Of a DNA stretch of 58,017 nucleotides, positions 23,822 through 25,693 are shown piece by piece (within the stretch, counting starts at the first letter, position 1; each line of letters begins with the position of its first letter). The DNA is from a virus. The stretch lies in IMG/VR virus record IMGVR_UViG_3300037089_000557; one strand, given 5' to 3'. The notes under the pieces were generated by a model. That model did not search any database. It worked only from the letters and a program-made list of their open reading frames with translations, and was not told where the DNA came from. The position numbers and the translations under genes are program-made.

Positions 23822-25693
23822 ATGCTTCTGACCAGAACTTTTCCTGAGCACAACTATCGGGCGCTACATTTCAACGGAAAGACCGTACGTATAGCGCTTG
23901 ATCCGTCTAGGCCAATTACCGAACTTGCATATCCAGAGTTCTACGATGTCAAAGTAACTTCGCATTGCAAGGGTGGTTGTTCGTATTGTGTAGATCCAAA
24001 TACACTTATACTTACAACTGATCTTGAGTGGTTGCCTATAAAAGATATTGATATTGGCAAAGAAATAATTGCTTTCGATGAAACATCTTCAAGATCAGTT
24101 GTTAGAAAATTAAGAAAAGCAACTATAACAAACAAGTGGGCAACCAAAAAGCCAGCTATAAAAGTTACTACAGAAATAGGAGAAATTATTGTTTCAGAAG
24201 ATCATAAGTTCTTATGTAGAGATTGTAGATGGAGAAAGGCATCAGGTCTTAAATTGGGATCTGTTATTTTATCATGCCCAGTGTGGTTACCAACTGAAAT
24301 AAATGAAAATTATTGGATTGGTTATATTCAGGGAATGACGGCTGGTGATGGCACCTACAAATTAGAACCAACACCTAACCAACGACAAATTTGGTGGAGA
24401 ATTGCGCTGTCTAATACTGATGGATTGGATGCTATAATTAAGGCACTAGATACTCTTGGCATACTTCATCATGGAATAAAACCATTTGATAGCGGATCTC
24501 CATTAACAAAAAAGAAAATGTATAAAGTTGAGCTTAGGTCTAGAAAAGAAATTGATTTAATTAAACAGATACTATCTGTCGAAATGTTTCACGAAGATGG
24601 TGAAATTGATCACAGGCGCACTGCGGCGTTCAATGCTGGATGGCTTGCTGGTTTCTATGACGCAGAAGGTACTATAGATCAAAAAAGCGGCATAATTCAT
24701 TTATGTCAGCTAAAAAGCAATCCAGCATTTAAAAAAGCATGTGATATGCTTTCTTACTTTAATTTTGATATTGTTGAGGAAGATATAAAAATTAGAATTC
24801 GTGGCGGTAGGCTAACTGCATTAAAGTTTTTTGGTATTATAAAGCCAAAAATAATTGATAAGATTAGACTATTTGACGGTGAAGGCTCACATTATGATGC
24901 CGCAAAGGTAGTTAAACTTGAACGGGTAGAGGCTCAAGAACTTATAGACATCACAACCACAACTAAAACTTTTTTTGCAAATGGTATGGCCGTACATAAC
25001 TGCTATCAAAGCAGCGTGCCAACGGCTAAGCATCCATCAGGCTTGGTGGCGAGGTTCAAGGCATTCTTCCATGGGTTCACGCAAAACCAATTACCATTTC
25101 AGATCGCCTTTGGCGGAGGGGAGCCCACCAGCCACCCTGACTTCATCCCGCTTATTAAGGCCTGCGCAGAAATGGGCATTCTTCCAAACTACACCACAAA
25201 CGGCATGTGGACAGACTGGCCATCAGCCTCTTCTATCGAACTGCTCGCAGCCACCAAGGAGCTGTGCGGCGGCGTTGCCGTGTCAACCCATCCCCATCTG
25301 GAAAGACAATGGAGATGTGCAACAGAACTGTATTTTGAAAATGGTATCCATACCAACCTTCATATAATCATTGGAGATAGGCGTTCGATAGATCGCTTCT
25401 CAGAAATCTATAAAGAATTCTCTGGTAAAGTGAAATACTTTATTATGCTTCCACTATCAGCCCAGGGCAGAGCCACAGAAGAATTTTCTGATTGGGAATA
25501 CTTCAAATCAAAAGTAGATGGCTCCCCAAGAGATATAGGCTTTGGCGCTAACTTCTATCCTTATCTGATTAGTGACAGTAAGCGTTTCTCTGTTAGTTTG
25601 TACGAACCCGAAAGCATGTCTGCATATCTGGATCTTGAAACAGGAAAGGTATACAAGTCATCTTTTTCAACTGAGGAAAGAGTTGTTGGATAA
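23822..25693 (+). CDS. Radical SAM enzyme interrupted by an intein (extein about 285 aa)
   Basis: Extein CKGGCSY|C reconstitutes CxxxCxxC; extein also has GGGEPTSHPDF...NYTTNGMW. Confidence 0.8.
   Translation: MLLTRTFPEHNYRALHFNGKTVRIALDPSRPITELAYPEFYDVKVTSHCKGGCSYCVDPNTLILTTDLEWLPIKDIDIGKEIIAFDETSSRSVVRKLRKATITNKWATKKPAIKVTTEIGEIIVSEDHKFLCRDCRWRKASGLKLGSVILSCPVWLPTEINENYWIGYIQGMTAGDGTYKLEPTPNQRQIWWRIALSNTDGLDAIIKALDTLGILHHGIKPFDSGSPLTKKKMYKVELRSRKEIDLIKQILSVEMFHEDGEIDHRRTAAFNAGWLAGFYDAEGTIDQKSGIIHLCQLKSNPAFKKACDMLSYFNFDIVEEDIKIRIRGGRLTALKFFGIIKPKIIDKIRLFDGEGSHYDAAKVVKLERVEAQELIDITTTTKTFFANGMAVHNCYQSSVPTAKHPSGLVARFKAFFHGFTQNQLPFQIAFGGGEPTSHPDFIPLIKACAEMGILPNYTTNGMWTDWPSASSIELLAATKELCGGVAVSTHPHLERQWRCATELYFENGIHTNLHIIIGDRRSIDRFSEIYKEFSGKVKYFIMLPLSAQGRATEEFSDWEYFKSKVDGSPRDIGFGANFYPYLISDSKRFSVSLYEPESMSAYLDLETGKVYKSSFSTEERVVG
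23987..25000 (+). mobile_element. Intein (338 aa) with a LAGLIDADG homing endonuclease, inserted between Tyr and the third Cys of the radical-SAM CxxxCxxC motif
   Basis: Starts CVDPNTLILTTD, TxxH block SEDHKFL, two LAGLIDADG motifs (GMTAGDGTY, LAGFYDAEGT), ends AVHN followed by extein +1 Cys; length 1014 nt, in frame. Confidence 0.8.

Follow-up and report, generated by a model that had tools for sequence, protein, structure and literature searches.

A LAGLIDADG intein, predicted to be mobile, within the iron-sulfur cluster motif of a phage radical SAM gene

Introduction

Inteins that interrupt radical S-adenosylmethionine (SAM) enzymes have been described before. For SplB (COG1533), 48 inteins are listed in Actinobacteria (Novikova et al. 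2016, Table 1, PMC4760082), and NCBIfam has a dedicated model, NF038136, for the 'intein-containing Rv2578c family radical SAM protein'. In the MoaA intein of Pyrococcus abyssi a disulfide between Cys-3 and Cys1 is described as controlling splicing, as a natural redox trap (Callahan et al. 2011, as related in passages of PMC3922620 and PMC10663303). Another layout is that of the 'fractured genes', in which a free-standing endonuclease gene lies between the two halves of an intein; the passages of Dassa et al. (2009, PMC2677866) that name hosts give gp41, NrdA, NrdJ, IMPDH and DnaE, and a term search of that paper returned zero occurrences of Fe-S or oxidoreductase and no radical SAM host. Here we describe an intein in a stretch of viral DNA of 58,017 nucleotides, IMG/VR record IMGVR_UViG_3300037089_000557 (hereafter the window), where it splits the gene of a predicted radical SAM enzyme inside the CxxxCxxC motif that binds the iron-sulfur (Fe-S) cluster. 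Judged from the sequence, it is probably a still active mobile class 1 intein with a double-motif LAGLIDADG endonuclease, placed between Tyr55 and the third Cys of the motif in a radical SAM gene of a jumbo phage, and we give this reading a probability of roughly 0.88. Intein residues are numbered from Cys1, extein residues are counted as minus or plus from the junctions, and a slash marks a splice junction.

Results and discussion

Boundaries of the intein and empty sites

The precursor is encoded by a single unbroken open reading frame (ORF) of 623 amino acids (aa), made up of a 285-aa extein and a 338-aa intein (precursor residues 56-393), and its stop codon overlaps the ATG of the next gene (Table 1). 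The intein lies between Tyr55 and the third Cys of CKGGCSY/C, so that the N-extein holds the first two cluster ligands, Cys49 (-7) and Cys53 (-3), both of which are invariant, and the C-extein, which opens with Cys+1, holds the AFGGGEPT SAM-binding motif and the remaining barrel. Cys+1 is at once the third cluster ligand and the splicing nucleophile. An earlier reading of the letters, made without database searches (the sequence-only reading), had quoted TSHCKGGCSY / CVDPNTLILTTD ... SEDHKFL ... GYIQGMTAGDGT ... GWLAGFYDAEGT ... AVHN / CYQSS for the intein and its flanks and GGGEPTSHPDF...TTNGMW for the extein, and all these strings are found in the ORF.

On removing residues 56-393 and searching with the 285-aa spliced sequence, we obtained 550 homologues. 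The best 120 of them are mostly 270-300 aa long, with 58-90% identity in the search table and a query coverage of 93-100%, and since they cover the spliced query to this extent at this length, they are without the insert. Aligned to 18 and later to 58 homologues without intein (57-90% identity), the junction CKGGCSY/CYQSS shows no gap; their consensus at this point is CxGNCPYCYQxS, and C49, C53, C56 and Y57 are invariant in both alignments. The boundaries of the intein are therefore exact, and they rest on gap-free alignment and not on motif-spotting. Also, the relatives without intein that the sequence-only reading had proposed to compare do exist: in three syntenic loci (L002, L003 and L004) the radical SAM gene is uninterrupted, and the empty-site DNA of L003 and L004, TGCAAGGGTGGATGTCCGTAT/TGCTATCAAAGCAGCGTGCC, is nearly identical to the flanks in the window, TGCAAGGGTGGTTGTTCGTAT/TGCTATCAAAGCAGCGTGCC. 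These loci share with the window (19.4-27 kb) the order of a 402-aa protein, a transglycosylase, two small genes, the radical SAM gene, an HD-domain protein and a methyltransferase. The insertion is thus in frame, absent from the orthologues and codon-exact at both junctions, as a class 1 intein should be.

The G+C content of the window is 0.42; each extein lies above this at 0.46, and the intein well below at 0.348. A drop as sharp as this (0.35 vs 0.46), falling precisely at the boundaries, is also what an assembly chimera would give, in which a low-G+C insert was mis-joined into the gene. The chance of this is negligible in our view: the insert is in frame, starts with Cys, ends in His-Asn-Cys and has a codon-exact position, and the syntenic contig L001, which comes from an independent Joint Genome Institute (JGI) sample, carries the same intein at the same codon with 81% protein and 82% nucleotide identity, which excludes mis-assembly. 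The low G+C of the intein relative to its exteins recurs in the L001 copy.

Table 1. Coordinates of the precursor, its parts and other features discussed in the text (positions in the window unless a locus is named).
Feature	Position	Strand	Basis or remark
Precursor gene, radical SAM enzyme split by intein	23822..25693	+	ORF list; 623 codons and TGA stop
N-extein, 55 aa, ends ...TSHCKGGCSY	23822..23986	+	gap-free alignment to intein-free homologues
First seven codons of CxxxCxxC (C-K-G-G-C-S-Y)	23966..23986	+	insertion point directly 3' of 23986
Intein, 338 aa, class 1 type, with embedded LAGLIDADG endonuclease	23987..25000	+	Pfam and NCBIfam matches, alignment of relatives, AF2 model, fold matches
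Hint domain, N-terminal half: Cys1, Thr6 (CVDPNT), block B	23987..24286	+	C1 and H73 invariant, T6 nearly
Block B, S70-E-D-H73	24194..24214	+	H73 invariant in alignment of relatives
LAGLIDADG endonuclease domain, approximate limits	24299..24886	+	PF14528, conserved motif columns, fold, dN/dS
LAGLIDADG motif 1, YWIGYIQGMTAGDGT (Asp121; GMTAGD121G)	24311..24355	+	
LAGLIDADG motif 2, FNAGWLAGFYDAEGT (Glu227; GFYDAE227G)	24629..24673	+	
Hint domain, C-terminal part: block F ELIDITTTTKTFFANG, block G ...AVHN (His337, Asn338)	24887..25000	+	H337 and N338 invariant
C-extein, 230 aa and stop, starts CYQSS	25001..25693	+	alignment, Pfam, AF2 model of spliced protein, radical SAM fold matches
Cys+1	25001..25003	+	
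Paralogous small genes upstream (142 and 175 aa)	22653..23081; 23078..23605	+	alignment
HD-domain phosphohydrolase gene, downstream	25693..26184	+	phrog_990 at 2.4e-48, Pfam HD_4; syntenic in relatives
913-aa ORF: major vault protein shoulder domain (1.9e-27), vault repeat, SPFH/Band 7 domain	10555..13296	+	
tRNA gene with anticodon CTA	16071..16146	+	ARAGORN tRNA-Pyl
Free-standing endonuclease gene	54084..55013	-	phrog_681 at 1.7e-39, phrog_559 'HNH endonuclease'
NAD kinase gene	16363..17364		
GT51 transglycosylase gene	20706..22379		
tRNA nucleotidyltransferase gene	47680..49308		
HD-domain protein gene (auxiliary)	30052..30927		
VWA-domain protein gene	33392..34468		
Fractured radical SAM gene in related loci	L013 642..3211; L056 15..3184; L036 about 1..3208		

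Splicing domain and endonuclease domain

On aligning the intein with 14 relatives (25-39% identity), C1, H73, H337 and N338 were invariant and T6 and D121 nearly so; G112, G120, G218, G222, D225 and G228 of the LAGLIDADG motifs were invariant as well. The +1 Cys is invariant in an alignment of 49 intein-bearing relatives. The set of class 1 splicing residues (C1, S70-E-D-H73, H337-N338 and Cys+1) is thus complete, and there are two LAGLIDADG motifs, each with an acidic residue followed by Gly. PF14528 (LAGLIDADG_3) is matched with 27.2 bits, above its gathering score of 22.5.

The model of the intein by AlphaFold2 (AF2) has a predicted local distance difference test (pLDDT) score of 91.9, and its best Foldseek matches are the TliVMA intein (7qss), PI-PfuI (1dq3) and PI-SceI (1vde), with E values from 3e-15 to 1e-10. 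Like the window intein as modelled, these have a LAGLIDADG domain inserted in a Hint domain. They differ in having only 10-16% identity to it, in their length (430-540 aa vs 338 aa) and in extra DNA-recognition regions of their own which the window intein is without; as the two domains are oriented differently to each other, the overall template modelling (TM) score is low, at about 0.37. Taken separately, the splicing domain of the model is matched by the Ssp and Npu DnaB mini-inteins, and its middle domain by I-DmoI-type enzymes with a target-normalised TM of 0.6-0.7. The insert as modelled is a Hint fold with a LAGLIDADG domain. In a sequence search against solved structures, the intein gave weak matches to the gp41-1 intein alone, which include block G. 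Protein splicing and DNA cleavage are predicted activities of the window intein.

In these respects the sequence-only reading holds. It had placed a LAGLIDADG intein between the second and third Cys of CxxxCxxC, which is borne out by the dissection of the ORF, Pfam, the alignments and the AF2 model with its fold matches, and the terminal residues of the canonical blocks it had named are invariant in the formal alignment of relatives.

Radical SAM extein

The spliced sequence scores 33.3 bits on PF04055 (Radical_SAM), above the cut-off of 29.5, as the sequence-only reading had anticipated, and the unspliced one 23.1 bits. In the spliced protein CxxxCxxC reads C49-KGG-C53-SY-C56, and the three Cys are invariant in 59 sequences; the family also conserves AFGGGEPT, PNYTTNGMW, CGGVAVS.HPHL and further motifs. 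An AF2 model of the spliced protein from the 59 sequences has a pLDDT of 91.4, and its Foldseek matches in PDB are SuiB, SkfB, BlsE, DesII, EpeE, MoaA and viperin, with a TM of about 0.6 and 13-18% identity. These fold matches of the model go no further than the core that radical SAM enzymes have in common, and the extein is a predicted enzyme of the radical SAM superfamily. C144 is the one additional invariant Cys in the family, so an auxiliary-cluster (SPASM/twitch) domain is probably absent.

No subfamily could be attached to the extein, and here too the sequence-only reading stands, as it had left the family open: none of the searches in NCBIfam, PHROGs, PDB and BFVD gave a curated subfamily. 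No NCBIfam subfamily model comes near its cut-off, the best being that of viperin (NF038283, 29.1 bits vs 180); MoaA (18.1 vs 284), NrdG2 (14.6 vs 131) and the PqqE/SPASM maturases also stay under their cut-offs, and QueE is not listed; on these NCBIfam scores an identity with QueE or NrdG is rejected. PHROGs, and BFVD searched by Foldseek, give just the labels 'Fe-S oxidoreductase' and 'radical SAM', and a profile search of PDB as well as Foldseek against PDB returned generic radical SAM matches, none of them specific for a subfamily.

The extein family is common in viral contigs: IMG/VR holds 226 relatives, mostly on contigs of 40-500 kb, and the viral contig nearest by its radical SAM gene is IMGVR_UViG_3300014205_006828 (131 kb, 80% identity). 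A megablast of positions 23000-27000 against a phage collection gave no matches, and tblastn of the extein against the same collection gave just distant ones (26-31% identity) in Microcystis, Vibrio and Salmonella phages.

Proposed route of splicing and homing

The steps proposed here follow the established chemistry of class 1 inteins. Translation would give the 623-aa precursor, in which Cys1 would carry out an N-S acyl shift at the Tyr55-Cys1 bond; the thioester would then be attacked by Cys+1, the future third cluster ligand, cyclisation of Asn338 would free the intein, and an S-N shift would leave a seamless 285-aa enzyme with CKGGCSYCYQSS, which could then bind a [4Fe-4S] cluster and SAM. 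The freed intein, as an endonuclease, would cut the same site where co-infecting relatives have an allele free of the intein, and repair would copy the intein into the cut allele. Such homing would explain the presence of the intein in only some close relatives. The site CxxxCxx/C would owe its use to two features: no stretch of radical SAM genes is more conserved, and it provides the +1 Cys that splicing requires.

It may be noted that the precursor reads CKGGCSYC-VDPNT, whereby Cys1 of the intein itself keeps the CxxxCxxC spacing and forms a CxxC with Cys53. The claim of the sequence-only reading that splicing is needed to rebuild the three Cys therefore does not strictly hold for the primary spacing; what the insertion breaks is the link of the cluster loop to the barrel, and the true third ligand is Cys+1. 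It is a reasonable inference that the precursor is catalytically inactive, because the cluster loop stands 338 residues away from helix 1 and the remaining barrel.

Selection, mobility and points of doubt

Substitution rates were computed between the window and the L001 copy. The ratio of nonsynonymous to synonymous rates (dN/dS) is 0.125 for the whole intein, at a synonymous rate (dS) of 0.83, and 0.128 for the endonuclease part (dS 0.87); for the exteins it is 0.058, with dS about 2.2, a saturated value. Purifying selection thus acts on the splicing and the endonuclease domain alike. The intein copies seem to be younger than the genes that carry them, an argument that is only qualitative because the extein dS is saturated. 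No intein is present in the two nearest extein homologues, P0001 (90%) and P0002 (the gene of L003/L004, 82%), and L001 (about 80%) has it; patchy presence and low G+C are the usual signature of a homing element.

Several points weigh against an intact and mobile intein. Block B carries Ser where the consensus (T-x-x-H) has Thr. The generic intein models are not reached: PF14890 (Intein_splicing) is matched at an E value of 7.7e-7 with 29.5 bits, under its cut-off of 35.8, and TIGR01445 with 21.9 bits, slightly under 24.5. The contiguous intein is found in just two alleles among more than 550 homologues, which weakens the case for current homing. The L001 copy is the sole other one in the gene family, and its host gene is frameshifted near codon 552: within 8520..8560 of L001 a one-base frameshift in the C-extein gives ...FSDWEYLI and a stop, followed by SKIDGSPRD... 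in another frame, which may stem from faulty assembly or from a decaying host gene. Finally, the saturation of the extein dS weakens the argument that the intein is younger than its host.

Two other readings draw on these points. The L001 frameshift and the low scores on the generic intein profiles would agree with a defective intein in a pseudogene, the enzyme having been inactivated by the insertion; this is very improbable, as all 623 codons are open, all catalytic residues of the intein and all invariant residues of the extein family are kept, and purifying selection is evident from the dN/dS of exteins and intein alike. Somewhat better placed, and still unlikely, is an intein that splices normally with a dead endonuclease, which would make it a passenger, inherited vertically and open only to loss. 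Degenerate endonucleases are known from many inteins, and just two alleles with the contiguous intein in the gene family would suit such a passenger; what speaks for a working endonuclease is that both LAGLIDADG motifs are intact with their acidic residues and align with those of the relatives, that the endonuclease segment has the low dN/dS given above, that dS is lower in the intein than in the exteins, and that the intein occurs in only some close relatives. A probably still active mobile intein remains the preferred reading.

As a separate observation, the residue at -2 is Ser (CSY/C) in both intein-bearing alleles and in several intein-bearing genes of other families (P0122, P0127, P0128, P0133 and P0134). 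In the intein-free homologues it is mostly Pro, with CPY in 65 and CSY in 14 of 120. The Ser could reflect co-conversion from a donor or a requirement of splicing.

Insertion site across the intein lineage

Word-indexed searches with the intein gave 5 matches with the single sequence and 19 with a profile, and are not a census; an exhaustive HMMER search of 1.84 billion representative proteins (E <= 1e-3) gave 2,394 relatives. The flanks were read in 154 proteins (P0121-P0274), comprising the best 150 of the 2,394 and four from an earlier search. All of the ten best relatives have the intein at CxxxCxx/C. In the set of 154, CxxxCxx adjoins the intein immediately upstream in 54 cases, Cx(4-9)Cxx is found in 23 and Cxx only in 12; in 51 the upstream flank is of another kind and in 14 the N-terminal flank is missing or too short. 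Cys is present at +1 in nearly all relatives with a Cys motif, and 51 of the 54 CxxxCxx cases have Y, F or W at -1, a pattern into which CSY/C of the window fits. On scanning 49 unspliced hosts of the CxxxCxx class with Pfam, we found Radical_SAM in 34, B12-binding in 11, DUF5131 in 4, spore-photoproduct-lyase (SPL) in 3, DUF1848 in 2 and SPASM in 2; among 34 scanned hosts with the longer spacer or Cxx only, 21 matched DUF5131. CxxxCxx/C is therefore the usual landing site of a large group of related inteins and not an unusual one.

The sequence-only reading had taken the insertion at the cluster motif as a special feature, which has to be given up: besides the ten closest relatives, SplB and MoaA inteins are already in the literature and an NCBIfam model exists. 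Full-text literature searches on inteins in radical SAM or Fe-S proteins returned no paper that discusses the cluster-motif insertion site.

With the inteins of the SplB/Rv2578c/PA0069 type the window intein is homologous, as it matches positions 76-334 of NF038136 at an E value of 1.6e-18, a match confined to the intein segment, and it shares their Hint and LAGLIDADG architecture. The relatives of this type that we recovered have the same insertion point, NPYRGCEHGC.Y / intein / CYAR (P0143, P0173, P0185, P0186, P0190 and P0273); among the hosts, three have a match to Pfam SPL, and one relative bears the name 'PA0069 family radical SAM protein'. The difference lies in the host, a 285-aa phage enzyme which is neither COG1533 nor actinobacterial, and in an intein identity of about 30%. 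Also, the window protein as a whole falls outside NF038136, with 66.9 bits, from the intein segment only, against a cut-off of 700. The window element thus adds one phage radical SAM family to the known intein hosts.

The closest relatives of the window intein stand at the last Cys of an N-terminal Cys motif in hosts of at least six families (classical radical SAM, B12-binding radical SAM, SPL/PA0069, DUF1848, SPASM and DUF5131), which points to repeated switching of hosts at the Fe-S cluster loop.

A split intein at the same codon

Three IMG/VR loci (L013, L036 and L056) matched extein residues 56-285 only, and in these sister phages the radical SAM gene is in pieces. In L013 and L056 an N-extein with an N-terminal intein half (IntN) of about 90 aa (...CKGQCPY/CFVGDT...) is followed by a separate ORF and then by a 35-aa C-terminal half (IntC) with the C-extein (...LVHN/CYQDS). 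The middle ORF, of 291 or 320 aa, has an HNH-like H-x-x-H...C-x-x-C-H that was spotted by eye and to which Pfam is blind. In L036 a stop codon alone separates the halves and there is no middle ORF. On Pfam Intein_splicing the two halves, once joined, reach 61.8 bits, and outside block G they have no significant similarity to the window intein. The same site has therefore been invaded at least two times independently in the radical SAM family of the window. The layout of L013 and L056, with a free-standing ORF between the intein halves, is that reported for the 'fractured genes' in passages of Dassa et al. (2009, PMC2677866), from which the window intein differs in being contiguous and carrying its own LAGLIDADG domain. 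The invasion of the same codon by a split intein would fit a site with special properties.

Possible gating of splicing

One such property may lie in the Cys arrangement, which by analogy with the MoaA intein allows redox or metal control of splicing. As described in the passages on it (PMC3922620, PMC10663303), that intein also has a radical SAM host and Cys at -3 and 1, as in C53-S-Y-C1 of the window, and differs in its archaeal host and in an enzyme of known function; from the reported Cys-3 and the MoaA motif, we infer that it sits at the identical CxxxCxx/C position. In the window precursor, a disulfide between Cys-3 and Cys1, or a metal or cluster held by Cys-7, Cys-3 and Cys1, would block the first step, and an oxygen-labile enzyme would mature only in a reducing, iron-replete cell. 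This would add to the view of a selfish element and not replace it. The precursor sequence C-KGG-C-SY-C1, the precedent of MoaA, and the presence across the lineage of Cys at 1 and +1, and at -3 in most members, are in its favour. On the other hand, the Cys residues are needed by the radical SAM motif and by splicing anyway, so that their presence is uninformative; the residues at -2 and -1 (Ser, Tyr) are unlike those of the engineered CPGC trap; and the disulfide may never form in the reducing cytoplasm during phage infection. We consider gating possible but doubtful.

A wider proposal, which we put forward as speculative, is that the whole lineage is specialised on the Fe-S loop and moves among at least six unrelated host families through the conserved C-x-x-C codons, and that the pseudo CxxxCxxC completed by Cys1 lets the precursor bind a cluster or form the Cys-3-Cys1 disulfide, so that redox and iron conditions in the infected cell would decide on splicing and, with it, on the activation of the oxygen-labile enzyme.

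Neighbouring genes and other features of the window

The two paralogous small genes upstream of the radical SAM gene encode proteins with an invariant N-terminal HS..D.ITNSST..YTYS motif and a C-terminal FLYST motif, and the second has a long poly-Asp/Glu insert. In each of the related loci read (L001-L006), a homologue of these genes stands directly 5' of the radical SAM gene, and an ORF bearing the motif lies about 470 nucleotides upstream in 70 of 80 viral loci (L007-L086). Together they seem to form a conserved two-gene module, with the small protein as a possible substrate or partner of the radical SAM enzyme. In a related radical SAM family (P0122, P0126-P0132) the enzyme is fused to an N-terminal domain starting IHN.R.GFATNSSSTHS; homology of the ITNSST proteins to this FATNSSSTHS domain is not supported, as BLASTP found nothing and hhalign aligned six columns at 1.4% probability.

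Elsewhere in the window, the endonuclease gene on the reverse strand lies in the kilobase of lowest G+C (0.31), between the genes of a NADAR-domain protein and an RNase T-like exonuclease, and is probably another mobile element. The ORF with vault-protein domains is unexpected in a phage-like genome. The auxiliary genes of Table 1 are typical of very large phages and the genome is jumbo-phage-like; the auxiliary HD-domain protein among them has only a weak tRNA-nucleotidyltransferase match (phrog_2244, E value 6e-4). There are 19 tRNA genes in the 58 kb, and the one with anticodon CTA is of the amber-suppressor type. A crude test of ORF length showed no sign of TAG recoding, as dropping TAG as a stop lengthened the ORFs less than dropping TGA or TAA.

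Conclusions

As a single element the window intein matters little, and it bears out the rule that places inteins in the most conserved catalytic motifs. Genes of this type are likely to be missed or mis-sized in annotation, because the unspliced gene falls under the Pfam Radical_SAM threshold. The pattern in the lineage, with dozens of inteins at the same Cys of the cluster motif in many radical SAM families and a split version at the same codon besides, is a natural data set on the switching between host proteins, and the same lineage is a candidate set for splicing under redox or Fe-S control. The interest of the finding lies mainly in this lineage-wide pattern and in the possible redox gating, both of which reach beyond the window.

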